Virus record (IMG/VR): IMGVR_UViG_2695420676_000012 | From: a virus | Lineage: Duplodnaviria; Heunggongvirae; Uroviricota; Caudoviricetes | DNA length: 36,271 bases | Reading direction: 5' to 3' (one strand) | The notes under the pieces: generated by a model | Told to the model about the DNA's origin: nothing | Database searches by the model: none | The model's input: only the letters and a program-made list of their open reading frames with translations | Shown here: one piece after another, positions 3,416 to 34,037 of the stretch | How the letters are laid out: each line of letters begins with the position of its first letter | Numbering within the stretch: position 1 is the first letter of the stretch | Translations under genes and position numbers: made by a program

Positions 3416-4414
3416 TTAAAGAGCCTCTAAAGGGCTTAAATCGAGTTCTAAGTCTTCCGGTGTTAAATCAGCTAACGGTGCATTCATCCACTGCGATAAA
3501 TCTCGTTCTATGTCTTCATCACTAATGTAGTTGTTCAGATTGATTGCGTTGGTATCATCAAAATACATTGGCTTAGATGGGTTGGTGTGGATGTATTCAT
3601 TGATGAATGATTTAACATCTTTCAGCTTGCTAATCGGTAGCGTTTCTGTGAATCCGCTATTCATTACCTTACGTGGGATTTTCTTGCCCTGAATATTCTT
3701 TTTAATCCCCATTTCTAAATCACCAGCTTTCCATCCAATGTTAAACAAATGTGAGCATTCAAAGGTGATTTTCTCGCTGGTGTGCTTCTGGTGTTCTCTT
3801 ACCCGTTGCATCGGATCTTTGCGAGTGGTAATTCCATATTTGAAAAACTTCTCGCCAACACGAATTAGATAAAAGTGCATAGGGCGCTGTGCAAACTTGT
3901 TTCTGATAACCTGTTTTCTACCATTCTGAATTGATTTAAGTACCCCCCTAACCAAAGGGCATGTTAACCCGCCTTGTCTGCGGTTATTGTGTAAATCACC
4001 TTTCTTGTGAATCTTTCCGTGGCACTTACAACGAAGAATTAGTTTAGTGTCAACACCCTGATAAGGTTCAGCCAGACCTAACACATCCCACCCTATCGGC
4101 TTGTAGAACTTGCGAGCGTTTTCTAAGTGTTCTTCTTCGGTAAATCTAAACTTCTTCTTAGGCGGTGATACTCTATCTTTGCCAGTAAACTGACCAGTTA
4201 GAACATGACTAATACATGGCGTTTTAACCTTTCCGTTAACTTCTATGCAAACTTTGGTGTTCTGGAATGGTTTCTTTACAGGAAGCACAAAACCACTGTA
4301 TAACCATCCATGCGCTTGACAAACTTTAATGATTCTGGTTTCATATTCGACCGGAGGGGTCGCACGTTTGCTTTTTGCGGTAAATTCGATATCCTTTGCT
4401 AAAGTAGTATTCAT
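3416..4414 (-). CDS. GIY-YIG-like nuclease domain protein (candidate free-standing homing endonuclease), 332 aa
   Basis: Central segment 'FYLIRVGEKFFKYGIT...RVREH...ITFECSHLF...LEMGIKKNI' resembles the GIY / YIG / Arg / FECS / Glu spacing of I-TevI-type nucleases; Cys/His-rich N-terminal part; SD GAGGA before ATG. Confidence 0.4.
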   Translation of the reverse strand: MNTTLAKDIEFTAKSKRATPPVEYETRIIKVCQAHGWLYSGFVLPVKKPFQNTKVCIEVNGKVKTPCISHVLTGQFTGKDRVSPPKKKFRFTEEEHLENARKFYKPIGWDVLGLAEPYQGVDTKLILRCKCHGKIHKKGDLHNNRRQGGLTCPLVRGVLKSIQNGRKQVIRNKFAQRPMHFYLIRVGEKFFKYGITTRKDPMQRVREHQKHTSEKITFECSHLFNIGWKAGDLEMGIKKNIQGKKIPRKVMNSGFTETLPISKLKDVKSFINEYIHTNPSKPMYFDDTNAINLNNYISDEDIERDLSQWMNAPLADLTPEDLELDLSPLEAL

Positions 4415-15981: not shown

Positions 15982-16035
15982 TATTCTTTTCCTTCTATTT
16001 TAAACAATAGGGCACATACCCGTAATTCTATTTAT

Positions 16036-16338
16036 TTAGCGGTTGCTCAAACGTCTATAACGAAGATGAGCGATCCCCCTATTTGTGCTAACGGTAATTA
16101 CCGCCCCTTGCGGTGCAATACAAGAATGAATCTGTCCCCAATCATGACCCTTATGGCTTCCAGAAACACACAAACCATGAATAAGCAATTCAGAGTCACC
16201 ACCGCCACCACCGGAAGAATGAGCACAGAATGAAATAGTCCCGAAAGCGTCGGCTGTCCAACCGTTAGGAATATCAAACCATCCTTGATTTGCTTTACCC
16301 GCCCTATTCCCCAAAGCGCCATCTACCCAAAATGCCAT
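16036..16338 (-). CDS. small glycine-rich protein, paralog 3 of 3 (100 aa)
   Basis: Shares 'W....FDIPNGW', Gly-run and 'G..WG...V..G..V' with the two upstream paralogs; start overlaps the upstream stop (TAATG). Confidence 0.55.
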   Translation of the reverse strand: MAFWVDGALGNRAGKANQGWFDIPNGWTADAFGTISFCAHSSGGGGGDSELLIHGLCVSGSHKGHDWGQIHSCIAPQGAVITVSTNRGIAHLRYRRLSNR

Positions 16339-16643
16339 TAGTGCATTCTCCTGAATTTAAAATAATGCAAACTACCTTTACCCAATGTAAAGCTAACGGT
16401 AGCACCAGCGCCAACTAAAGAACTAGCGCCCCAACTCCCAGCATCACCAGCATGATGACCTGATTCAATCAATCCATTTACAGCCAATTCAGAATCAAGA
16501 TCACCAGCACCGTTAATGGCTTCCATATGAGCAAAAACAATTCCGCATGAATCAGTAACCCAGCCGTTGGGGATATCAAAATATCCACCATTAGCCCAAA
16601 TACTAATAGCGTTTGACATTCTTTGATTTATCCATCCAGCCAT
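16338..16643 (-). CDS. small glycine-rich protein, paralog 2 of 3 (101 aa)
   Basis: Same conserved motifs (FDIPNGW, ...TVSFTLG...YFKF) as paralog 1. Confidence 0.55.
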   Translation of the reverse strand: MAGWINQRMSNAISIWANGGYFDIPNGWVTDSCGIVFAHMEAINGAGDLDSELAVNGLIESGHHAGDAGSWGASSLVGAGATVSFTLGKGSLHYFKFRRMH

Positions 16644-16645
16644 AA

Positions 16646-16942
16646 TTAAAACTCCATGAATTTAAAATATTCAACACCACCTTCACCCCCTAAACCAAAG
16701 GAGACGGTGCAGCCAGCAGGAACAAACGAATTTATAGTAGATCCCCAATTGGTCCCACCACGACGACGAGCAACGGTCAAACCATCTACGTTAATATGTG
16801 CATCAGACCACCCACCACCAGCATTATGACGCATTACAGCGACACCAGCACGAGCAGTACCATAGCCGTTAGGAATATCAAATACATGCCATTTTAAAGC
16901 ATCGATTTTAGTATTAATTTCACTACTTACCCAATATCCCAT
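16646..16942 (-). CDS. small glycine-rich protein, paralog 1 of 3 (98 aa)
   Basis: Motifs 'FDIPNGY', 'GGGW', 'TVSFGLGGEGGVEYFKF'; SD 'AAGGA' before ATG. Confidence 0.55.
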   Translation of the reverse strand: MGYWVSSEINTKIDALKWHVFDIPNGYGTARAGVAVMRHNAGGGWSDAHINVDGLTVARRRGGTNWGSTINSFVPAGCTVSFGLGGEGGVEYFKFMEF

Positions 16943-16980
16943 ATAAGAATCCTTAGCGGAGATTTCTCCCCGCTTTCCAA

Positions 16981-19900
16981 TTACCCTAATTTAGCTTCAA
17001 TTGCAGCAAGACGTTCACGAAGAAGTTTATTTTCTTCGCTCATTTCTTGGACCGCTTTAATTAAAAGCGCGTTCACTGCGGAGTTTGAAATTGTTAAAAT
17101 TTCTTCTGGGTTATCAAGACCACCAATTTTTGCGGTTTTAACAGCTTCCGGTAATACCTCTTGTAAATCCTGTGCGATAATACCAATCTCATGACCTATA
17201 ACTTCTCGGTCATTAAGAGATTTAACTTTATCGTAGGTTTTAACTTTGAGTTTATTTACCTTATCCACCGCATTTTCTTCGTAATCTTCAACATTAATTT
17301 TCAGACGACCATCGGAACGAATATAAACATCGTTAAAGTTACCATTACCAGGAGAATAGAAAGTACCATCATGATGAAATTCAAACACCGCTTGAGGATG
17401 ACCAGCCGCTGGCGATGCCTCCGCAGATCCAACGCGAATAATTGCTTGCCCCCAATTTTGAGGAACACGACGCATACCAAAATCGACGGCAGTTGTATAC
17501 CCTTGATTGGTGATTAAACTTCTTCCTTTAATAATTGGATAATAGCTATCTGGTCCTACATAACCATGATCGACAAATATCGGCGCTTCTAATCCCCATT
17601 GATCGCCCCAACCTCCAGATTGGCTAGCAGTCCAACGTTCACCATGAACATAGAATCGAACGTTATTGACATGAGTCATTTCGACACCTTTTGGACTTAG
17701 CGCGATATCACCCGCGTTTGTAATATTGATAGCAGCATTAGTAGCATAGCTATAGAACGCTAATCCATTATCAGCACCACCTTTACCGATATACCAGTTG
17801 TTATTATCAGCACAAGTACCCAGCAAATATATAGACGAATCACCCGTTTCGGCATTCATGACGATTGCGTCAGAACCACGATTAACTTTAAGTTTCCCGA
17901 AGAAGGTGTTTTTAATGGTATTATCACCCAATCGTTCAAATTCTGCGAAAAATCCTTTTGAGTCACGAAGACTTAAAACGTTATTTCGACCTGTATTGCT
18001 TGCCCCCCAATGGACGAGTTCCATATAGTCCATAGATTGACGAGAACCAGCTTTAAAGAAAAGGTTGTCTTCAAGACGGGTACTACCATCAATTCCGAGA
18101 TGCAAACAACGAGCGGTTGCAGTACCACCTAAATACAATCCACCGTCCGCAAAATCATAGCTGAATGGTCTGCGATTATTCCAACTACCAAAAGAATCTT
18201 TTAAATCGGTAGTAAGAATATGGAAGCTAGAACCATCATTGCGTAAAATCAAACCATAGTTACCACCTTTGACAGCCAAACGAGCATTTTCAGATAATGC
18301 AACTTCGCTATTCATTACAATTTTCTGGCCTTTACCGCCAGTAATATGCAATTCACCATCTTCAATCAGGTTTATAGAGTTTTGACCGTTATCGTTCCAC
18401 CAAATAAAATCTTTGGTTGTTCCATCACCAAAACCAAACCAACCATTACGAACATCTTGTCCAGTGCGATAATCCATGAAATTAAAATGACTTGATTCGT
18501 TTGGTCCTCGACGAATATCAATACCAGAATTTCCAGTAACACCGCCATCCAATGTTAATTTCTTGACATGTAACCCGGATGTTGCTGTCAGCAATAATTC
18601 CTGATTTGTATCTTCGTATCCAGTAGCAAGACGATATGCGTTATCATCAACTGTCTCATGCCAGATAGTGGCAGGAGCAGAACTACGGAAGCGACGCAAC
18701 ATTTTCTTAGCATTTGTTTGCTGTTCGTTCAAATGCTCAATGTCGTATTGGCCTTGATGGTTTCCAGCAAAATTTAACGTTCCACGGTTGCTAAAGTTAT
18801 TGAACGATGAAATGTTAAGAGCATCAAAAATTTCATCTGCAACAGGTTTTTCACCACCCAGATATTCAGGAGTATCCAACAGGTTTAAAGAAACACCACC
18901 GGAAGAAACTTGATATTCTGCTAAAACAAATCCTGTATGTGCACCGTAGTAAGCGTAAAGATCGTAATTGTCGCCATCGGTTGGAATAGCGCAAAAATGT
19001 TGTTCATGATGCCAAATAGTATAATACGCATTGAATACAACACCTTTCGGGCTATTGTTGCCGCATCGAATCACCAATTCGATAATATTGGCTTGTCCAT
19101 TATGTCCTACGTTATAACCGTTACCACCAACCAAACGGATCTTAGCCGTGCGACCGTGTTGTTGTGGCATTGTCAAAGTGCCTAGTTTAAACCAACCACC
19201 CTCGATACCAAAATTAAGCGTCTTCTGGAACAGTCGGTCAATTTCTGCTTTCGAATATGCGCCAATTTCAGCCGGAGTAGGTTTATCACCTTCATGATAC
19301 ATGCGGTGAGAATATGCCAAATGTCCCAATTCATCATAGCCGTATGTTCTTACCGTATGAACCGGATTAGACCCATAAGTGAACTCAAAACCACGAGCAT
19401 GATTAACGCCGGATGGGTGCGGAACATGCAAGATCATTGCAATATGACCCGCCAGGTCATTCATGCGAAATGCACCAAAGTAATCAAGATTAAGAGCACT
19501 CGGATCATCAAAAGGGTTTGCGGTCTTAGACAGCAAATAGCCATCAGTGCAAGTGTTTACGTGCTTTTTGATGTACTTGCCATCACTTGATCCATCGGCT
19601 GCATCAATACGGCTTTCTAAACGTGCAAGTTCGGAATCAGTGTAAGACTTGTTATTGTCAACTTTGCTATGAATTGCTGAATTTTTGGCTTCAACATCAC
19701 GGGTTAATGCTGCGACGTTATCCGCTGCCTCTTGCTTATTGGCTGCAATCACACCAGTAAGGTTATTGTAGGTGTCAGTTAACTGATTTTCCGCATAGGC
19801 GTGATTTGCTGCGATAGTGCGGTCAGTTTCTGCCTTAATCAAATCAACTTTGTCATTGATTGCTTTGTGATTGCTTACGATGGTTGCATCGGTACGGGAT

Positions 19901-20391
19901 TTAATATCATCAACTTTTTTATTGATGCGGGTGTCCAGTTCCTGAGTTGCTACAGCAGCCGCATTTTTATTAGCGTTGATGGTATCCGACAATTCAGCTT
20001 TAACACCAGCAAGATCGGAAGCAGCTTTATTTTTATTGGCCTCGATTGTCGCGTCGGTTTCGCGTTTAATTACATCAACTTTATTGTTAATTTCTGCGTG
20101 ATTTGCTGCGATGGTTGCATCAGTAGTTTGTTTAATTTCATCTACTTTAGCGTGAATATTGCGGCCATTTACTGCAATTGTGCTATCCAATTCTTGTTTG
20201 TTAGCATCAACTTTAGATTCTAGTGCCGCGTGAGTTTCAGGAGAAACAGAGATTTGAACTACTTCATGATCTCGGTCTTTGGTAAAAATAACATGGTCTT
20301 TAAGGTTGATTGCTACCTCACCGACCTGTAATTGTTCCGGCGTTGGCTTTTTGCCAGAAACATTAGTTCGTTTAAATTGGATTGATTGCAT
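16981..20391 (-). CDS. tail fibre with C-terminal intramolecular chaperone (peptidase S74-type) domain, 1136 aa
   Basis: C-terminal 'SDGRLK...GIIAQDLQEVLPEAV...LLRERLAAIEAKLG' matches the autoproteolytic chaperone module of T5 L-shaped fibre / endosialidase-type fibres; N-terminal ~22-aa 'KVD.IK..TDATI.ANH' repeats; SD 'GAGGTGA'. Confidence 0.8.
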   Translation of the reverse strand: MQSIQFKRTNVSGKKPTPEQLQVGEVAINLKDHVIFTKDRDHEVVQISVSPETHAALESKVDANKQELDSTIAVNGRNIHAKVDEIKQTTDATIAANHAEINNKVDVIKRETDATIEANKNKAASDLAGVKAELSDTINANKNAAAVATQELDTRINKKVDDIKSRTDATIVSNHKAINDKVDLIKAETDRTIAANHAYAENQLTDTYNNLTGVIAANKQEAADNVAALTRDVEAKNSAIHSKVDNNKSYTDSELARLESRIDAADGSSDGKYIKKHVNTCTDGYLLSKTANPFDDPSALNLDYFGAFRMNDLAGHIAMILHVPHPSGVNHARGFEFTYGSNPVHTVRTYGYDELGHLAYSHRMYHEGDKPTPAEIGAYSKAEIDRLFQKTLNFGIEGGWFKLGTLTMPQQHGRTAKIRLVGGNGYNVGHNGQANIIELVIRCGNNSPKGVVFNAYYTIWHHEQHFCAIPTDGDNYDLYAYYGAHTGFVLAEYQVSSGGVSLNLLDTPEYLGGEKPVADEIFDALNISSFNNFSNRGTLNFAGNHQGQYDIEHLNEQQTNAKKMLRRFRSSAPATIWHETVDDNAYRLATGYEDTNQELLLTATSGLHVKKLTLDGGVTGNSGIDIRRGPNESSHFNFMDYRTGQDVRNGWFGFGDGTTKDFIWWNDNGQNSINLIEDGELHITGGKGQKIVMNSEVALSENARLAVKGGNYGLILRNDGSSFHILTTDLKDSFGSWNNRRPFSYDFADGGLYLGGTATARCLHLGIDGSTRLEDNLFFKAGSRQSMDYMELVHWGASNTGRNNVLSLRDSKGFFAEFERLGDNTIKNTFFGKLKVNRGSDAIVMNAETGDSSIYLLGTCADNNNWYIGKGGADNGLAFYSYATNAAINITNAGDIALSPKGVEMTHVNNVRFYVHGERWTASQSGGWGDQWGLEAPIFVDHGYVGPDSYYPIIKGRSLITNQGYTTAVDFGMRRVPQNWGQAIIRVGSAEASPAAGHPQAVFEFHHDGTFYSPGNGNFNDVYIRSDGRLKINVEDYEENAVDKVNKLKVKTYDKVKSLNDREVIGHEIGIIAQDLQEVLPEAVKTAKIGGLDNPEEILTISNSAVNALLIKAVQEMSEENKLLRERLAAIEAKLG

Positions 20392-28246: not shown

Positions 28247-28289
28247 GTAATTACCCTCATTACGAAATATGAAGGTATTTATTAAATTG

Positions 28290-28317
28290 TTGATTTTTTG
28301 ATAAATACGGGTATTAA
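28290..28317 (+). promoter_or_regulatory. sigma70-like promoter candidate for the plus-strand gene at 28334
   Basis: 'TTGATT'-16 nt-'TATTAA' in the divergent region between the terminase and 28334 genes. Confidence 0.3.
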
Positions 28318-28333
28318 GATTTAAGGGGGTTGT

Positions 28334-28936
28334 ATGCTAATTAATCAGCAACAAAGAGATGAATTAGAATTAGCCTTGTCTTGTACCGATCATGAATATC
28401 GTTTGCCAGTAAAACATAAGCACTTAAGGACTGATTACACAACATCCGGTTTTAGCCGTGAGGAAGCGAAAGAGATTTTAATAGAATTTTACCGTGATAA
28501 TGGTTATACAGACGTTCACAACTTCTTTAAGAAGCATAGAACATCACATACAGAGTTTCGGAGAGTCCGAGATTGGTTTGATTTTGATATCAAGCGTTAT
28601 TATCGCATTGATGACGGTCCTATCTATCGGTTGCAGTGGAAGCCGATCCGAGAAGTGTTGAAACAGAAGAGATTGAATCACGCTATTACACGCTATCGTA
28701 ACGAGGCTTTTAAGAAAGGCTATGGTGATACAAGGGAATTGTTTGTAGAACTCGCTAACGTGCGATATAGCCACTATTACAACGATCCTAAGTCCTTCTT
28801 CGAAGTGCTGCGCAAGGTTGATATAAGTCGGGGTACATACTATTCACGGTTGAAGAAGTACGGGATTAAGGCAGAGTTCTTTATGTCGGTTGACGATGGA
28901 GAACTTTTTCCTATAAAATGTAAGTCCTCTAAATAA
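28334..28936 (+). CDS. basic Tyr/Arg-rich protein with C-terminal HTH-like module, 200 aa
   Basis: C-terminus '[25 protein letters not shown]' resembles the two small HTH proteins at 28966 and 32781; SD 'AAGGGGG'. Confidence 0.5.
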
Positions 28937-30802: not shown

Positions 30803-30830
30803 AAGTGCGATAATCATAAAAAAGTCAGAA
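30803..30830 (-). promoter_or_regulatory. sigma70-like promoter candidate (minus strand) inside an inverted TTGTCAA/TTGACAA pair
   Basis: Minus-strand 'TTGACA'-17 nt-'TATGAT'; plus strand shows 'ttgtcaa-tacccc-ttgacaa' inverted repeat at 30825-30847. Confidence 0.3.
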
Positions 30831-30876
30831 ATTTTTGTCAATACCCCTTGACAAGACGCCAAAGGGTTGACCTAAC

Positions 30877-31335
30877 TTACAGCATATCTAAGCCTTCATC
30901 GTAACCGTAGAAGCCACCGTGAGAAGAGAAACAGATTGGTGTGTAGTCGTCGTCATCTTCGTCTTGTTCATCTTCTTCTGGGGCTTCCTGAGCGGTTTCT
31001 TTACCATAATCAGCCATAATCTGGTCAAGATCGGCGATCCCATAGTAAGAGCCTAAATCAACGTCATATTCACGAACATCAAAAGGCAGGTCATCACGAA
31101 CAATAATTGCTGGAATATCGTTGTATTGAAGACGACCCTCATCAGTAAAACAGTCGATGATCACAGTAGGACGACCATTTCGTTTTAAAGCGTAGAAAGC
31201 AGTTGAGTAGTTGGAGTCTTCGGAATGACGAATGATGTTATAACCACGATGAGCGAAAACTTCTAGCATATGGAAGTTACCATAGTTTTCAGAGTCCAGA
31301 CCCAGAAGTACGAAAGGAGTTTTAGTATTGATCAT
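30877..31335 (-). CDS. hypothetical protein with strongly acidic C-terminal tract, ~152 aa
   Basis: Start placed at ATG with SD 'AGAGGA' (track ORF extends to 31365); C-terminal 'EEDEQDEDDDDY'. Confidence 0.5.
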   Translation of the reverse strand: MINTKTPFVLLGLDSENYGNFHMLEVFAHRGYNIIRHSEDSNYSTAFYALKRNGRPTVIIDCFTDEGRLQYNDIPAIIVRDDLPFDVREYDVDLGSYYGIADLDQIMADYGKETAQEAPEEDEQDEDDDDYTPICFSSHGGFYGYDEGLDML

Positions 31336-31355
31336 AGTGGTATCCTCTAAAAGAA

Positions 31356-31386
31356 AGTGAATCAAGTAAGTTCACTATTATTTATA
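31356..31386 (-). promoter_or_regulatory. TATAAATA box followed by GTGAA/TTCAC hairpin upstream of the 30877-31335 gene
   Basis: Minus-strand 'TTATAAATAatAGTGAActtacttgaTTCACT...AGAGGA...ATG'; same architecture as 4414-4456 and 32508-32537. Confidence 0.4.
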
Positions 31387-31588
31387 AAGAGAAAATTCTT
31401 GTTATTATGAAAGGTGATTGTATTCAGTCGGGCAAAGCCCTCCTTCATGATTTGATTAAATTATGATCAAAACGAAGAAGTATCTTTAGAATATAATAAT
31501 CTTTCTTTTGGAGAAATAATAATCAGGAAGTAATTTAGCAACCGAAGGTTGCAATCCCGAAGGGATACCAATACCTTTCATGATCATT

Positions 31589-31846
31589 AAAGTGATCTAG
31601 AATCATCTAGTAACCAGTTAACTACTATTATCTTCAAAGTGATTATTACTATCTTTCTAGAATCAGTTAGTAACTAGTATTAAATCCCTTTCGAGAAAAT
31701 CCTTTCAGAAGTGATTCTCGATGCCACGCAGTGGCGTCGCAGACGTTTGAGAGTGAGCGAAGCGAGCGAGCAAACTAGTTAATTCCTTCTAAGACCATCT
31801 AGTATCATCTAGTTTAAATTAGTTGTTACTAGAAGTAATTGGTTAG
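31589..31846. repeat. CTAG-rich imperfect direct/palindromic repeats in an ORF-free region
   Basis: 'aaagtgat' x3 (31589, 31636, 31708); 'tctagaatca(t/g)(c/t)tagtaac(c/t)agt' x2 plus variant 'tctaagaccatctagtatcatctag'; palindromes 'agttaact', 'actagt'. Confidence 0.45.
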
Positions 31847-32017
31847 CGCTTCGCGCAGTCGGGCTACGCCCTCCTAATTATCTTTTTGGTTATTTGTTGT
31901 TTTTAGTTTTACACATGAGCGTAGCGAATGTGTTATATAATATCTATGCACGCCCGATCCCCCGCTTTTACCCCTCGCTAAGTTAATGTTTTATAAAGAG
32001 TTTTTATCACCAATCCT

Positions 32018-32216
32018 TTTCAGGGGCAAAAATGAGGGGCAAAAATTAGATTTTCAGGGGCAATTATTGGCATTTCAGGGGCAAAAATGAGGGGCAAAAT
32101 CACTGTTTCCCAGAATTTCAGGGGCAAAAATAGTAGGTTTCAGGGGCAAAAATGGGATAGTAGAATCTTGGGGATTTTATTCGGGGGCAAAAATTCAGAA
32201 TTTCAGGGGCAATTCC
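32018..32216. repeat. direct-repeat (iteron-like) array: 9 copies of (T)TCAGGGGCAA(A)AAT core
   Basis: 'GGGGCAA' at 32023, 32036, 32057, 32078, 32091, 32121, 32143, 32184, 32206; exact 27-nt duplicate 'tttcaggggcaaaaatgaggggcaaaa' at 32018 and 32073; spacings 13/21/21/13/30/22/41/22 nt. Confidence 0.8.
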
Positions 32217-32408
32217 CATCAAATATTTTGATAGAAAATTCTTGTATATTATTTAATCAAAAAATCACCAAAAAGTGGCGTAAGTTAATGATTTAAAAAG
32301 AATTGTCAAAAGGTCTCCGTGCTATAATAGGTTATAAAGGTTGATAATCCTGATCTACAATTTTCAAACAAAAATTTTGATAGTCATTTCTCGCTTAGGT
32401 CAAGTGCA

Positions 32409-32437
32409 TTGACAACTGTCAAGGATTATTTTATACT
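32409..32437 (+). promoter_or_regulatory. consensus sigma70 promoter with palindromic -35 (TTGACA-AC-TGTCAA)
   Basis: 'TTGACA' (32409-32414), 17-nt spacer, 'TATACT' (32432-32437); -35 lies in a perfect inverted repeat. Confidence 0.55.
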
Positions 32438-32507
32438 TTTTCTCACTGGTGGGGGTTGAAATTTTCTAAACAGTCCCCATATAGATGATAAGCAAGAATT
32501 TCCACGT

Positions 32508-32537
32508 TATAAATACATGTGTGAAATGATTGTTCAC
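32508..32537 (+). promoter_or_regulatory. TATAAATA box followed by GTGAA/TTCAC hairpin
   Basis: 'TATAAATA' 32508-32515, hairpin 'gtgaa-atgattg-ttcac' 32521-32537. Confidence 0.4.
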
Positions 32538-32574
32538 TTCTGAAAATCTCCTGATTCACTGCTAATTCATACAT

Positions 32575-32600
32575 CACTGGTTAGATATACAGTGCTTTTT
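32575..32600 (+). terminator. terminator-like hairpin plus T-run in the leader region
   Basis: 'cactg-gttagatata-cagtg' followed by 'cttttt'. Confidence 0.4.
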
Positions 32601-32658
32601 CGGTTGAATATTGTACGAATTGATTAATAATTAATCTTCTCTTTAGCAATTCGTGCTC

Positions 32659-32686
32659 CCACTGATCGGATATACAGTGGTTTTAC
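32659..32686 (+). terminator. terminator-like hairpin plus T-run
   Basis: 'ccactg-atcggatata-cagtgg' followed by 'tttta...gggttttc'. Confidence 0.4.
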
Positions 32687-32707
32687 AGGGTTTTCTGACA
32701 ATCATTT

Positions 32708-32747
32708 TATAAATACAAGTGTTCAGAGCGAAATGCTCTTTTTTTAA
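32708..32747 (+). promoter_or_regulatory. TATAAATA box followed by hairpin plus T7 run (attenuator-like) before the 32781 gene
   Basis: 'TATAAATA' 32708-32715; 'agagc-gaaat-gctct' 32725-32739; 'ttttttt' 32740-32746. Confidence 0.4.
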
Positions 32748-32780
32748 GAAATTATTAATCCACATGTGAGGAATCGACTG

Positions 32781-32960
32781 ATGGCTAGACCTGTTAAGTT
32801 CACTCGTGAAATGATTGTTGATATTGCTAAACGCTTTTACAGCGACACTGAGCGAGGCGGGGAAAACTTCTTTAAGAAGGAAGGAATTGATAGAAGCGGA
32901 TTCTACAAGCTAATGAAGAAATACGAAATTCAGGTAAAGATTAACGTTCAAGTTTGTTAA
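32781..32960 (+). CDS. small HTH DNA-binding protein, paralog of 28966-29196 (~59 aa)
   Basis: 'ARPVKFTREMIVDIAKRFY...GIDRSGFYKLMKKYEIQVKINVQV'; start at ATG with SD 'GAGGA' (track ORF opens with GTG at 32766). Confidence 0.5.
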   Translation: MARPVKFTREMIVDIAKRFYSDTERGGENFFKKEGIDRSGFYKLMKKYEIQVKINVQVC

Positions 32961-33074
32961 TCCACTTTCACTGAGAATTATATGATGGCTTTAAAAAAGA
33001 AAAAGCCTCCCTTGTTGCAGCAAAGGAGGCTTGAAATGAACAATTAAAACTAACTTTCCACAGGAGTATTTATA

Positions 33075-34037
33075 ATGTTATTTTCCGCTAACTTTTTCAC
33101 TAACGAAGTAACCAACGCTAAAGCAGTTATCAAATTTGGCACCGAAGCAAACAAGAAGATTCAGCCGAAAGTTGTTGCTCATGTTTCCTTTGCGCAGCAG
33201 AAATCCGCTTTCGCTGGCTTTAAAGCACATCGTGAAGCACTGATCGCGGCTGGCTTTGGTGTTGACGGTAAACTGCCTAACGGCATTCGTAAAGCAATCG
33301 ACCGCGTTAAACCTGCTAAAGACGTTGCAGTAGACCACATCGTTACTTTCACCGTTAAGAACTCTTCTGAACTGTTCCACCTAGTGATTGCTGGTGATAC
33401 TGCTATCGTTTCCGCTCCTAACATGGATTTTCAGGATACCGCTGATTGCAACATTACCTTTGGTCGTCGTAAAGAAGTTACCGGAAAAGCTAAACTGAAC
33501 TTCACCAAATCCGGCAATCCTTACTTTGCTGTATTCTTTAACAGCCACGCTACTGAGAAAGAAGTAGTAGAACTGGTTGCATATGAAGGTGAAGAAAAAG
33601 CACGTATTGAATCTTGCGACGCTTTCGTAGAACTGGAAGCACAGGTTAATGCTGTTTCTCCGGTTGCTGTTGAAGATCGTTTCTCTGCACTGGAAGCACA
33701 GATCGCAGAACTGAAAGCTGCACTGAAAGAAAAAGACCAGATCATCGAAGCACAGAAAGCTGAGATTGAAGAACTGAAAGCTAAAGAAGTTGCTCCGGTT
33801 GCTGTTGAAGCAGATCAGGAAGTTGAATCTAAAGACTTCTTTACTCAAGCGGTTGAATCTAAAGACAAACAAGCTCTTTGGATTCTGCTTAACGAAAAGC
33901 GTACTGTTGCAGACGTTGCAGAATGGAACAAATACCTGATTAAGAAAAATGGTTCTTCCGTTCAATTCATCGATTTAATGACAGTTAAAGTTTTTGATGC
34001 GTTCGAAAATGTGTTCGACGTTCGCAAAGCAGCTTAA
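33075..34037 (+). CDS. hypothetical abundant protein with coiled-coil and internal 'SPVAVE/APVAVE' repeat, 320 aa
   Basis: Strong high-expression codon bias (ctg, cgt, gct, gaa, aaa); SD 'GGAG'; downstream of the consensus promoter. Confidence 0.6.
   Translation: MLFSANFFTNEVTNAKAVIKFGTEANKKIQPKVVAHVSFAQQKSAFAGFKAHREALIAAGFGVDGKLPNGIRKAIDRVKPAKDVAVDHIVTFTVKNSSELFHLVIAGDTAIVSAPNMDFQDTADCNITFGRRKEVTGKAKLNFTKSGNPYFAVFFNSHATEKEVVELVAYEGEEKARIESCDAFVELEAQVNAVSPVAVEDRFSALEAQIAELKAALKEKDQIIEAQKAEIEELKAKEVAPVAVEADQEVESKDFFTQAVESKDKQALWILLNEKRTVADVAEWNKYLIKKNGSSVQFIDLMTVKVFDAFENVFDVRKAA

Follow-up and report, generated by a model that had tools for sequence, protein, structure and literature searches.

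The window is a stretch of 36,271 nt from a virus of the class Caudoviricetes, and positions 32409-32780 of it hold a sigma70 promoter (P1) and a non-coding leader, which extends for 337 nt from P1 to the gene for a helix-turn-helix (HTH) protein termed p59. This gene begins with an ATG at 32781 behind a GAGGAA Shine-Dalgarno sequence at 32768, and is followed in the same rightward operon by the gene for a second protein, p320. The promoter, palindrome, boxes, hairpins, and T7 run described in a first-pass annotation of this DNA were all found where it had placed them. The leader that it had proposed ahead of a first open reading frame (ORF) at 32781 is likewise real, and is conserved and non-coding, this start being the one annotated by RefSeq in relatives. 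The features considered here are as follows.

28334-28936: p200, a 200-amino-acid two-domain protein.
30813-30853, minus strand: PL, sigma70 promoter TTGACA-17-TATGAT, the only other strong sigma70 promoter of the element.
32014-32217, plus strand: iteron array directly ahead of the promoters, with about 10 copies of TTTCAGGGGCAAAAAT.
32218-32232, unstranded: palindrome ATCAAA-N3-TTTGAT, with a second, imperfect copy at 32367-32381; the pair flanks P2.
32320-32328, plus strand: P2, extended -10 promoter TGcTATAAT without a good -35, read from the sequence.
32409-32437, plus strand: P1, sigma70 promoter TTGACA-17-TATACT, 11/12 match (hexamers at 32409-32414 and 32432-32437).
32409-32424, unstranded: inverted repeat TTGACA-AC-TGTCAA(GG), candidate operator, overlapping the -35 and spacer of P1.
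32446-32484, plus strand: stem-loop near the 5' end of the P1 transcript (GGGGGTTG...CAGTCCCC), -11.6 kcal/mol.
32508-32515, plus strand: TATAAATA box 1 (extended TATAAATAcatGTG), candidate internal -35-less promoter.
32521-32537, plus strand: GTGAA-N7-TTCAC stem-loop, 6 nt after box 1, weak (-3.1 kcal/mol).
32575-32600, plus strand: hairpin CACTG-N10-CAGTG followed by CTTTTT, repeat copy 1, -5.0 kcal/mol.
32613-32656, plus strand: long stem GTACGAATTG...CAATTCGTGC, -12.5 kcal/mol, z = -5.0, none of 200 shuffles as stable.
32639-32657, plus strand: conserved 19-mer CTCTTTAGCAATTCGTGCT, common to otherwise unrelated leader alleles.
32659-32686, plus strand: hairpin CCACTG-N10-CAGTGG followed by TTTT, repeat copy 2, -7.4 kcal/mol.
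32708-32715, plus strand: TATAAATA box 2 (TATAAATAcaaGTG), candidate proximal -35-less promoter of p59.
32725-32746, plus strand: stem-loop AGAGC-GAAAT-GCTCT followed by T7, -5.9 kcal/mol, the sole plus-strand terminator call in the region.
32781-32960, plus strand: p59, 59-amino-acid homeodomain-like HTH protein, first gene of the operon.
33075-34037, plus strand: p320, 320-amino-acid protein, second gene of the operon.

The element that carries this leader belongs to an undescribed family of temperate siphophages that reside as prophages in Escherichia, Salmonella, and Proteus. The element is about 35 kb in size, and the family integrates at ycdX and was identified in 58 of 5,426 complete E. 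coli genomes (about 1%); protein searches pointed to roughly 400 members. Strains with an intact copy include E. coli GN4741 (NZ_CM177112, with the prophage in ycdX) and PE15. Around 40 distinct copies from E. coli conserve the leader, and the relatives from Salmonella and Proteus keep it in modular form. Full-text literature searches combining TATAAATA with prophage or temperate, and ycdX with prophage, returned no description of the element. Apart from its tail-fiber genes, the family is without a DNA match in 50,697 deposited phage genomes. No isolated phage corresponding to the element has been deposited, and a p200 profile searched against species-representative genomes yielded no relatives. 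The tail-fiber genes (approximately 16020-19305) are up to 97% identical in DNA sequence to Tequatrovirus genomes, indicating recent exchange. The element has a large terminase of lambda GpA (cos) type, and a Nu1-like small-subunit gene lies 2.4 kb from the leader core. The nearest relative of the large terminase in an isolated phage shares 43% identity and is encoded in a 26-kb siphovirus-like module of DCP80, a chimeric-looking T-even assembly; this module, which bears TTATAAATA boxes after terminators, was found nowhere else. The element is equipped with complete virion, lysis, integrase, and iteron/initiator-like modules of its own. It encodes no CI/Cro-type repressor, late sigma factor, or known replication protein, and no repressor, replication protein, or late regulator was recognizable in the family. 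It also lacks tRNA and tmRNA genes.

Three sites in the whole window match 11 of the 12 sigma70 consensus positions, and two of them, P1 and the leftward site of PL (30841-30813), are intergenic and correctly oriented; promoter-like sites as a class are not enriched here (4 versus 6.1 in shuffles). P1 combines TTGACA/TATAAT-type hexamers with a spacing within 16-18 bp, and transcription from it would be expected to start at approximately 32444. The near-consensus promoter reported by the first-pass annotation is conserved across genera: the -35, the TGTCAA arm, and the -10 are retained in all 24 E. coli leaders of the window type, and equivalents were identified in Salmonella (TTGACG...TATACT), Proteus (TTGACA-17-TAAAAT), and a metagenome locus, L066 (TTGACA-18-TATAAT). 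In E. coli, P2 is conserved in the form TGCTATAAT or TGCCATAAT, and Salmonella has TGCTATATAA at the equivalent position; both copies of the palindrome that flank it are conserved in 12 E. coli loci.

The sequence TTGACAACTGTCAA (32409-32422) at the -35 of P1 is a perfect inverted repeat that is unique in the window. Its arms are invariant in the 24 E. coli leaders, and its center is AC, TG, AG, or TC. The sequence TGTCAAGG occurs at only two places in the window, the P1 repeat and PL (30846-30853), where the -35 lies inside TGTCAA-N6-TTGACA, an arrangement conserved in Salmonella. PL precedes a leftward operon that encodes a 110-amino-acid protein and a Rha-family protein. The two repeats differ in spacing (N6 versus N2) and have their arms in opposite arrangement. 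As both promoters carry their -35 within an inverted repeat, they would probably be governed by one repressor. The operator-like character that had been proposed for the P1 palindrome is thus in keeping with its invariant arms, its variable center, and the parallel at PL, and an operator role, with repression at this site, is plausible. This character does not extend to the whole family, as the palindrome is missing from the Proteus relative, one Salmonella relative, and the alternative E. coli leader allele, with L059 and L069 among the loci that lack it; in L066 it has N5 spacing. A neighboring regulator that co-varies with the promoter was discarded as a candidate, since neither the p59 alleles nor those of the leftward neighbor follow the leader or promoter type.

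Downstream of P1, folding of the whole leader gave z-scores of -1.2 for the plus strand and -1.5 for the minus strand, and the stem at 32613-32656 was its only statistically stable local structure. Three variable positions of this stem still pair through G-U or C-G, and do so on the plus strand only; one stem position breaks in 2 of 26 sequences. One-sided changes that preserve pairing through G-U occur at 32614, 32616, 32618, and 32727, and RNAalifold detected no two-sided compensatory changes in the 26 sequences. The Rfam search returned no match at the gathering score in the window, and only chance-level matches (E 0.18-7, with scores well under the gathering threshold) within 31300-33100 at E ≤ 10. 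The discrete small RNA that the first-pass annotation had suggested is thus backed neither by an Rfam match, nor by whole-leader stability, nor by two-sided covariation; a small RNA or an attenuator is a conceivable function. The stem-loop near the P1 transcript 5' end shows one-sided changes that keep pairing; Salmonella has a hairpin of other sequence at the equivalent position, and in the alternative allele the 32446-32484 hairpin lies between both boxes. In most E. coli relatives the GTGAA/TTCAC stem is reduced to 4 bp, and Salmonella has GAAGG...CCTTC in its place. A 14-mer, GTGAAATGATTGTT, spans part of this stem-loop and recurs within p59 at 32806-32819 as a direct, not complementary, repeat.

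The two CACTG-N10-CAGTG hairpins (32575-32594 and 32660-32679) are direct repeats, 84% identical and 85 nt apart. The first has a conserved stem, a variable loop, and a competing 5' arm (CACTG) at 32557-32561, and the second is conserved in E. coli and has a bulge in Salmonella. Both had been taken for terminators. They were not called by the terminator scan, their 10-nt loops exceeding its limit, and with runs of four to five T, z-scores of -1.8 and -1.6, and the folding energies listed above, they are weak terminators. The only stretch of the leader with the features of an intrinsic terminator, although a weak one, is 32725-32746. Its stem sequence is retained and its loop varies across the three genera, and in 10 of 26 sequences an A has changed to G, with pairing maintained as G-U. 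For transcripts of the leader this hairpin is terminator-like, and transcripts started at box 2 would carry it as a 5' stem-loop.

Around the hairpins, E. coli copies share 94% identity in the leader core (32570-32690), which is 78.5% identical to that of a Salmonella relative whose p200 is only 47% identical. This core is better conserved than the adjoining p59 gene, the alleles of which fall to 48-57%, and is wholly missing from L068, L066, and Proteus. Within it lie a 7-1-7 palindrome, GATTAAT-A-ATTAATC, which is not conserved in Salmonella, and the 19-mer CTCTTTAGCAATTCGTGCT, which recurs in Salmonella and in both the window-type and the alternative leaders of E. coli, and of which L069 has two copies. 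The 19-mer had three matches in 185,579 species-representative genomes, a chance level. Several other candidate features of the leader were set aside. None of the plus-strand mini-ORFs has a Shine-Dalgarno sequence, and they are conserved only to the extent that the DNA is; minus-strand ORFs of 44 and 40 amino acids are broken by indels in relatives. An immunity RNA of the P4 CI or P1 c4 type was rejected because the 10-nt complementarity between 32524-32533 and 32698-32707 is not conserved in relatives, and a DnaA box at 32756-32764 (TAATCCACA) has one mismatch and is not conserved.

The TATAAATA boxes were retained with much greater fidelity than their surroundings: exact copies of box 2 were found in 26 of 26 distinct leaders and of box 1 in 23 of 26, compared with 60-78% mean identity in the flanks, and the 10 nt upstream of box 1 vary freely. 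Box 2 forms the mosaic boundary common to the window-type and alternative leader alleles, and the unit formed by box 2, its hairpin, and the T-run occurs in every relative examined (Salmonella, Proteus, and L066). Each of the two leader alleles has two boxes. The separation of exactly 200 nt that had been pointed out holds in the window and is not a conserved property, being 54 nt in the alternative allele and approximately 199 nt in Salmonella.

Nor are the boxes, which had been described as a local feature of the leader, confined to it. TAAATA is the top enriched hexamer upstream of genes in the element, occurring in the sense orientation at 17 of 36 genes and in the antisense orientation at 3 of 36, compared with 3.9±1.8 genes (maximum of 12) in 1000 dinucleotide shuffles. 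The perfect TATAAATA precedes five genes against 0.42 expected, a number reached in none of 2000 shuffles, and the extended form TAAATA-N3-GTG, to which box 1 belongs, has six matches against 0.46 expected. The same enrichment was found upstream of orthologous genes in Proteus (11 of 18 sense, 2 antisense) and Salmonella (11 of 19 sense, 2 antisense). The median distance from box to start codon is 32 nt, a stem-loop begins 1-10 nt 3' of each perfect box, and several boxes directly follow terminator hairpins. Many copies at late genes are degenerate at the first two positions (nnTAAATA); TATACATA denotes a point-mutant form of the TATAAATA box. An artifact of AT-richness was rejected, as the 17 versus 3 strand asymmetry, hexamers of the same composition (at most 11), and the dinucleotide shuffles all speak against it. 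Ordinary sigma70 promoters were rejected as an explanation because the boxes have no -35 at 16-18 bp, their upstream flanks are variable, and none scored at least 10/12 in the promoter scan. An oriented intergenic motif is also how a roadblock-type repressor site would be expected to look.

Two sites outside the leader bear on the function of the boxes. The 87-bp divergent gap between the p200 and large terminase genes contains two back-to-back boxes and no sigma70-like promoter, and both boxes are retained in relatives in which this gap is as short as approximately 60 bp (L033 and L035). In addition, a strong terminator lies about 40 nt beyond a minus-strand box at 33067-33074 (unit 33003-33074), and this arrangement is difficult to account for if the box is not a promoter. 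The product of this unit is possibly an antisense RNA opposite the ribosome-binding region of p320. The boxes have the TATAAATA core of a T4-type late promoter, lack a -35, and lie just upstream of genes. Being element-wide, strand-oriented, and -35-less, they are best read as a second class of promoter. No relative of T4 gp55 was detected among window ORFs of at least 40 amino acids (phmmer and blastp, E > 3), and no sigma-like family was matched by Pfam or PHROGs in the 11 non-structural proteins scanned. We read the boxes as putative element-specific, -35-less promoters of T4-late type in an element with no detectable gp55 homologue.

The N-terminal arm of p59, MARPVKFTRE, is invariant in the alignment, and this arm and helix 3, the two parts presumed to contact DNA, do not vary between alleles that are only 54% identical. 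The AlphaFold model of p59 has three helices (pLDDT 79), and its best Foldseek matches, all non-significant (E > 2), include HTH, homeodomain, and NtrC-type DNA-binding domains; no sequence relative was found in the PDB. p59 is paralogous to repeat 1 of p200 (hhalign probability 96.5%; also tblastn). The models of p200 and p59 gave generic HTH matches only and no gp55-like sigma factor. No relative of p320 was found in Pfam, PHROGs, or the PDB, and it has no detectable similarity to any Rep family. The p320 allele co-varies perfectly with the type of iteron (CAGGGGCAA, GTGTAGG, or CTAGGGAT) over approximately 50 loci, independently of p59 allele and leader type. From this co-variation, we infer that p320 is an iteron-binding protein, either a replication initiator or an autoregulator.

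The explanation that we consider best, and to which we give an even chance of being right as a whole, is that 32409-32780 serves the rightward early/replication operon p59-p320 as its control leader and that the boxes constitute a second promoter class. Host RNA polymerase with sigma70 would enter at P1 and P2. The P1 transcript would begin with a protective 5' stem-loop, cross the conserved and mostly sequence-constrained core, and then meet the terminator-like hairpin and T-run at 32725-32746. The location of this hairpin just before the p59 ribosome-binding site suggests that sigma70-driven expression of p59 and p320 would be attenuated, with termination at 32746. The TATAAATA boxes would be recognized as promoters with T4-late sequence and no -35, in some cases in the extended form TATAAATA-N3-GTG, and would place a stem-loop at or near the 5' end of their transcripts. 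The p59-p320 operon would have box 2 as its proximal promoter, and a transcript internal to the leader would arise from box 1. With T4-like spacing, the box-2 transcript would include the whole hairpin and T-run and might thus self-terminate after approximately 25 nt. The factor that reads the boxes would not be sigma70 alone, and candidates are p59 or its two-domain paralogue p200, acting with the host polymerase.

The boxes could also be the asymmetric binding sites of a monomeric HTH repressor (p59 or p200) that imposes a prophage-wide block, with boxes 1 and 2 mediating negative autoregulation of p59 from P1. They would then resemble the stoperators of cluster A mycobacteriophages (the L5 gp71 sites), which are also numerous, asymmetric, intergenic sites with one orientation in a temperate phage. 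The numerous asymmetric copies, found in short gaps between genes and uniformly oriented with respect to transcription, the position of p59 behind a constitutive-looking sigma70 promoter, and the match of an invariant p59 arm and helix 3 with an invariant box are consistent with such a block. It would leave unexplained, however, how the large terminase and p200 genes are transcribed from a two-box gap without a sigma70 promoter, why stem-loops immediately follow the perfect boxes, and what the minus-strand unit at 33003-33074 is for. Boxes occur where a promoter is required, and no repressor was identified in the element. Compared with the 13 bp of stoperators, which also lack the 5'-proximal stem-loop after each site, the core is only 6-8 bp long. 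Immunity repressors and their sites normally diversify together, whereas the box is identical in three genera, and we consider repressor sites an unlikely explanation. A T-even phage is another conceivable source of the reading factor. T4 late promoters consist of TATAAATA at -13 to -6 without a -35 and are read by gp55 with gp33 and the gp45 clamp. The boxes share with them the identical 8 bp, the lack of a -35, a strong orientation bias, short leaders, and many copies upstream of single genes, often right after terminators. If they were true T4-type late promoters, used by the gp55/gp33/gp45 machinery that a superinfecting T-even phage supplies, the genes of the element would be turned on at the T-even late phase, and the element would act as a helper-activated prophage or as a trap against T-even phages. 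The lack of a late sigma factor, CI/Cro-type repressor, or known replication protein, the Tequatrovirus-like tail-fiber DNA, the terminase relative with its TTATAAATA boxes inside DCP80, and the missing isolates of a family carried by about 1% of complete E. coli genomes would all fit. With complete modules of its own, however, the element looks autonomous. Homology between tail-fiber genes of lambdoid and T-even phages has long been known and needs no dependence, and the DCP80 record may simply derive from a mixed lysate or from misassembly. Because T-even phages break down DNA that contains cytosine and, via Alc, prevent it from being transcribed, a chromosomal prophage would be a poor late template. 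Unlike T4-like myoviruses, the carrier is a 35-kb temperate siphophage-like prophage without a detectable gp55 homologue, many of its late-gene copies are nnTAAATA, an extra GTG is conserved 3 nt downstream, and promoter activity is predicted. Dependence on a T-even phage thus appears improbable to us; in a weaker version of this idea, a non-gp55 protein of the family would give E. coli RNA polymerase a T4-late-like, -35-independent specificity.

Two further proposals concern the leader rather than the boxes. Its products could be discrete regulatory RNAs, with candidates of approximately 155 nt (P1 to 32600), 80 nt (box 1 to 32600), and 300 nt (P1 to 32746), or a riboregulated attenuator that decides p59/p320 synthesis, a possibility that is compatible with the control leader and second promoter class preferred above and not exclusive of it. 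The conservation of the core beyond that of p59, the stability of the 32613-32656 stem (z = -5) with its variable positions pairing on the plus strand only, the attenuator-like competition of two alternative CACTG 5' arms (32557 and 32575) for one CAGTG arm, and the T-run after each hairpin all point in this direction. They have to be set against the weak putative terminators (-5 to -7 kcal/mol, 10-nt loops), the unremarkable folding of the leader as a whole, the negative Rfam and covariation results, the unconserved 32524-32533/32698-32707 complementarity, and the absence of the core block from L068, L066, and Proteus, and we regard an RNA function of this kind as rather doubtful. Alternatively, the core could act as DNA, as part of a replication origin, a cos/pac site, or a binding site for terminase or p320. 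Its primary sequence is conserved without covariation and includes direct repeats 85 bp apart (about eight helical turns), the 7-1-7 palindrome, and a 19-mer that is sometimes present twice. It also lies 350-480 bp from the iterons, with the putative iteron-binding protein encoded just downstream, and the element has a lambda GpA (cos) type terminase and a Nu1-like gene 2.4 kb away. The block is missing, however, from members that retain the iterons, P1, and box 2, the central palindrome is lost in Salmonella, and the G-U-preserving substitutions favor a plus-strand RNA, making a DNA site very improbable in our estimation.

The preferred reading, a control leader with a second promoter class, has partial parallels in other known systems. 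As in the PL/PR region of lambdoid phages, two divergent strong sigma70 promoters lie approximately 1.6 kb apart with an inverted repeat at each -35, the first rightward gene stands behind a long leader that contains terminator-like hairpins, and replication-type genes lie downstream. In contrast to that region, the element lacks homologues of CI/Cro, N, and Q, a search for nut-like boxA/boxB sites identified none, each promoter has one repeat of differing geometry instead of a tripartite operator, and a putative second promoter class is embedded in the leader. Promoter-plus-stem-loop modules between genes, shuffled in order and copy number among related genomes, are reminiscent of the 'PeSL' cassettes of T4-type phages reportedly described by Arbiol and colleagues in 2010. 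PeSL cassettes have sigma70 early promoters and belong to lytic phages, whereas the cassette of this element has a late-type box and resides in a prophage. Iterons immediately upstream of the promoters for the operon of the co-varying, putative binding protein, and a possible antisense RNA opposite the p320 ribosome-binding region, resemble iteron replicons with an autoregulated rep operon. Unlike in those replicons, p320 has no Rep-family similarity, a 337-nt leader and an HTH gene separate it from the iterons, and the origin role is putative.

If the boxes are promoters, these prophages would represent temperate phages that use -35-less promoters of T4-late sequence without a gp55 homologue, implying either a new way to re-program E. 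coli RNA polymerase or a dependence on T-even phages. Should the latter be true, the element would be the first T-even-dependent 'hitch-hiker' or an anti-T-even trap. The leader itself would be a compact switch in which a sigma70 entry, an operator-like palindrome, an attenuating hairpin, and a promoter of the second class are placed before the genes for an HTH protein and a putative iteron-binding protein, and the finding opens a view of a family of prophages in E. coli, Salmonella, and Proteus.

A prophage of about 35 kb, from an undescribed enterobacterial family, makes up the window. It encodes a lambda-GpA-type large terminase, a portal, a protease-capsid fusion, a tape-measure protein, a J-like tip protein, an M15 endolysin and a serine recombinase; no CI/Cro, N/Q or replication genes were recognisable in the element. 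The entire element is integrated in ycdX in E. coli GN4741, and relatives in Salmonella and Proteus are flanked by this same PHP-family gene. Of 5,426 complete E. coli genomes, 50-58 carry homologous DNA, as do about 40 prophage contigs of IMG/VR. A comparison with 50,697 phage records matched only the DNA of the tail-fibre genes (up to 97% identity to T-even phages), and the nearest phage-encoded large terminase on record is just 43% identical. The tail-fibre/adhesin genes (gp37/gp38-like; ~16020-20391, minus strand) share 80-97% DNA identity with T-even phages such as KFS-EC and are matched by 188 phage records, the remainder of the element by no phage. In E. coli rl0044 (L001, locus 18.4-24.5 kb), all that is left is a ~6.5-kb remnant, from Rha through a 101-aa gene and including the whole leader, flanked by truncated patD-like and hicB genes; decayed copies at another chromosomal location therefore still retain the control region.

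The genes on either side of this control region, a leftward one of 152 aa and the rightward gene for p59, a 59-aa helix-turn-helix (HTH) protein, are separated by 1.4 kb of non-coding DNA, and Salmonella and Proteus keep a gap of similar size. The left half of the gap (31404-31960) is also repeat-rich, with a 29-nt inverted repeat whose arms lie 123 nt apart (31404-31584), four CTAG-rich repeats TCTAGAATCATCTAGTAAC (31596-31820), GC-rich GAGCGAAGCG repeats and a palindrome ACACAT...ATGTGT (~31911-31934).

Features of the control region and of the p200/terminase gap (window coordinates)
28247-28333, 87 bp: divergent gap between the genes for p200 (a 200-aa protein) and the large terminase, with two back-to-back boxes, GATAAATA and AATAAATA
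30841-30813, minus strand: PL, leftward sigma70 promoter TTGACA-17-TATGAT, 11/12 match, kept in Salmonella
32014-32217: iteron array, just upstream of the extended -10 promoter P2 and of P1
32409-32437, plus strand: P1, sigma70 promoter TTGACA-17-TATACT, 11/12 match
32613-32656: long stem, -12.5 kcal/mol, z = -5, the one statistically stable local structure, not singled out in the first-pass annotation
32725-32746, plus strand: AGAGC/GCTCT hairpin with a T7 run, the sole plus-strand terminator call of the region
33067-33074, minus strand: TATAAATA box, overlapping the Shine-Dalgarno-to-ATG spacer of the p320 gene

A direct check of the window recovered every feature of the first-pass annotation, including the perfect inverted repeat TTGACAACTGTCAA at P1, which occurs once in the window, and the TATAAATA boxes at 32508 (box 1) and 32708 (box 2). 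Only three 11/12 sigma70 sites were found in a whole-window scan, and two of these, P1 and PL, are intergenic and gene-facing. The -35 of PL likewise lies within an inverted repeat, TGTCAA-N6-TTGACA, conserved in Salmonella, and the octamer TGTCAAGG has exactly two copies in the window, one per strong sigma70 promoter and oriented with each. Window-type leaders retain both promoter elements (-35 and -10), the spacer and the TGTCAA arm, and differ in the two bases at the centre of the palindrome. The recurrence of repeat and octamer at PL supports a candidate operator shared by P1 and PL, in line with the proposal that the palindrome is operator-like; against it, P1 and PL do not share one repeat geometry, Proteus, L069 and the alternative leader allele lack the repeat, and in L066 its spacing is N5. 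An extra copy of TTGACAAC lies just 3' of the PL -10, at 30804-30791.

The boxes have the sequence of the T4 late-promoter consensus, and they recur throughout the element. Within 90 nt upstream of 36 genes, TAAATA is the commonest hexamer, present in the sense orientation at 17 genes and antisense at three; other hexamers of its composition reach at most 11, and dinucleotide-shuffled versions of these stretches average 3.9±1.8 (maximum 12 in 1000). Perfect TATAAATA precedes five genes against 0.42 expected, a count that 0 of 2000 shuffles reach, and the extended TAAATA-N3-GTG has six matches against 0.46 expected. The median distance from box to start codon is 32 nt. The perfect boxes sit before accessory/regulatory genes (starts 981, 4414, 31335, 32781 and 35966), each with a stem-loop starting 1-10 nt further on; at late genes the box is mostly nnTAAATA, in several cases immediately after terminator hairpins. 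The sense bias is also found at orthologous genes in Proteus (11/18 versus two antisense) and Salmonella (11/19 versus two). No sigma70-like promoter was found in the 87-bp p200/terminase gap, and in L033 and L035, where this gap is only ~60 bp, both boxes are retained, abutting (TATTTATC|TAAATA). Enrichment, strand bias, and the gap and terminator contexts fit -35-less promoters better than the other readings considered. About 40 nt past the minus-strand box at 33067-33074 lies the strongest terminator of the region (33003-33032 plus a T-run), and E. coli relatives retain both despite non-homologous p320 alleles and indels beside the start codon, but Salmonella and Proteus do not; 33003-33074 could thus specify a candidate antisense RNA of ~70 nt opposite the p59-p320 spacer. 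The gene with its start at 4414 encodes a 332-aa protein (3416-4414, minus strand) with weak matches to T5orf172/MUG113-type (GIY-YIG-like) endonuclease domains and a PHROG endonuclease family; the gene has a perfect TATAAATA box upstream and a 9-bp stem enclosing its ribosome-binding site.

Among 39 distinct sequences upstream of p59, 24 carry the window-type leader and 14 an alternative one in which the tandem sigma70 promoters are different; L050/L033 is a 25th window-type leader, which a regular expression first placed with the alternative type and which aligns when its -35 may vary. All 26 sequences keep box 2 exactly, and 23 of the 26 keep box 1, while mean identity in neighbouring segments falls to 78% and 60%. 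E. coli copies share 94% identity over the leader core (32570-32690), and identity to the core of one Salmonella relative, whose p200 protein is 47% identical, is still 78.5%. The alternative allele, otherwise unrelated, also has two TATAAATA boxes, a GGGGTTGAAA...CAATCCCC hairpin between them and the 19-mer CTCTTTAGCAATTCGTGCT. The recurring modules (P1 with the CAAGGATTATTTTA spacer, 5' hairpin, boxes, 19-mer, and box 2 with hairpin and T-run) appear in distant relatives in altered order and number: P1 lies between the boxes in L068, the 19-mer is present twice in L069, and the core block is missing in L066 and Proteus. The single module common to every relative is box 2 with a short G+C stem, a T-run and the p59 ribosome-binding site.

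The two hairpins annotated as terminators are present, as CACTG-N10-CAGTG direct repeats (84% identity, 85 nt apart), but are weak, with 10-nt loops and folding energies of just -5.0 and -7.4 kcal/mol. No Rfam family matched, whole-leader stability was not unusual, and no conserved small ORF was found in the leader. RNAalifold on 26 sequences gave no two-sided compensatory change, only one-sided substitutions keeping G-U or C-G pairs on the plus strand (32614, 32616, 32618 and 32727). The suggested small RNA or attenuator is therefore no more than a possibility. An exact 14-mer, GTGAAATGATTGTT, occurs just after box 1 (32521-32534) and again in the p59 coding sequence (32806-32819, REMIV codons), longer than expected by chance within 1.7 kb.

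No ORF of at least 40 aa resembled T4 gp55, and Pfam and PHROGs runs on 11 non-structural proteins gave no sigma-like match. p59 is modelled as a three-helix, homeodomain-like HTH (pLDDT 79); even its best fold matches, among them HTH, homeodomain and NtrC-type DNA-binding domains, fall short of significance (Foldseek E>2). The N-terminal arm (MARPVKFTRE) and helix 3 of p59 do not vary over alleles just 54% identical. Of the two HTH repeats in p200, the first is a paralogue of p59 (hhalign probability 96.5%). The p200 gene heads the late operon in divergent orientation, and homologues of p200 are confined to Escherichia, Salmonella and Proteus. We infer that p59 and p200 are candidate box-specific factors. 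The product of the second gene, p320 (320 aa; 33075-34037), has no detectable relatives of known function. Over ~50 loci its allele co-varies perfectly with the upstream iteron type (CAGGGGCAA, GTGTAGG, CTAGGGAT or others), independently of p59 allele and leader type; p320 would therefore be the iteron-binding protein, most simply a candidate replication initiator or autoregulator.

In the arrangement we prefer, to which we give about an even chance, sigma70 would enter at P2 and P1, with a repressor acting at the inverted repeat, and the transcript, carrying a 5' stem-loop, would cross the conserved core and be largely halted at 32746. Boxes 1 and 2 would be second-class promoters, box 2 being the proximal promoter of p59-p320, with possible positive feedback if its factor is p59 or p200. 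That the boxes are instead roadblock-type repressor sites is unlikely, given how their contexts fit promoters. A mainly RNA-based leader function, compatible with the preferred arrangement, is also unlikely; the stable long stem and the one-sided substitutions stand beside the negative Rfam and covariation results. That the leader acts as a DNA site, for example an origin or cos, is very improbable.

Dependence of the boxes on T-even late machinery is improbable, though it gains a little from Escherichia phage DCP80 (PQ671644.1; L070-L072), a record filed as T-even (Gaprivervirus) whose 1-26 kb is a siphovirus-like 26-kb module that carries the nearest isolated-phage relative of the window's large terminase (43% identity) and has TTATAAATA boxes after terminators. 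The module is headed by repeats similar to those at 31404-31960, and no other entry in the phage and E. coli collections matched it. T-even genes are duplicated and inverted in the record, and capsid genes come in two sets, the second T4-type, so the assembly looks chimeric or mixed-lysate.

The first-pass annotation thus holds as observation and is borne out in part as interpretation, and the main interest lies beyond its framing. Judged from sequence, members of this prophage family seem to use -35-less promoter boxes of the T4 late type, with no late sigma detected, and the leader would unite both promoter classes ahead of the HTH protein p59 and the putative iteron-binding protein p320.
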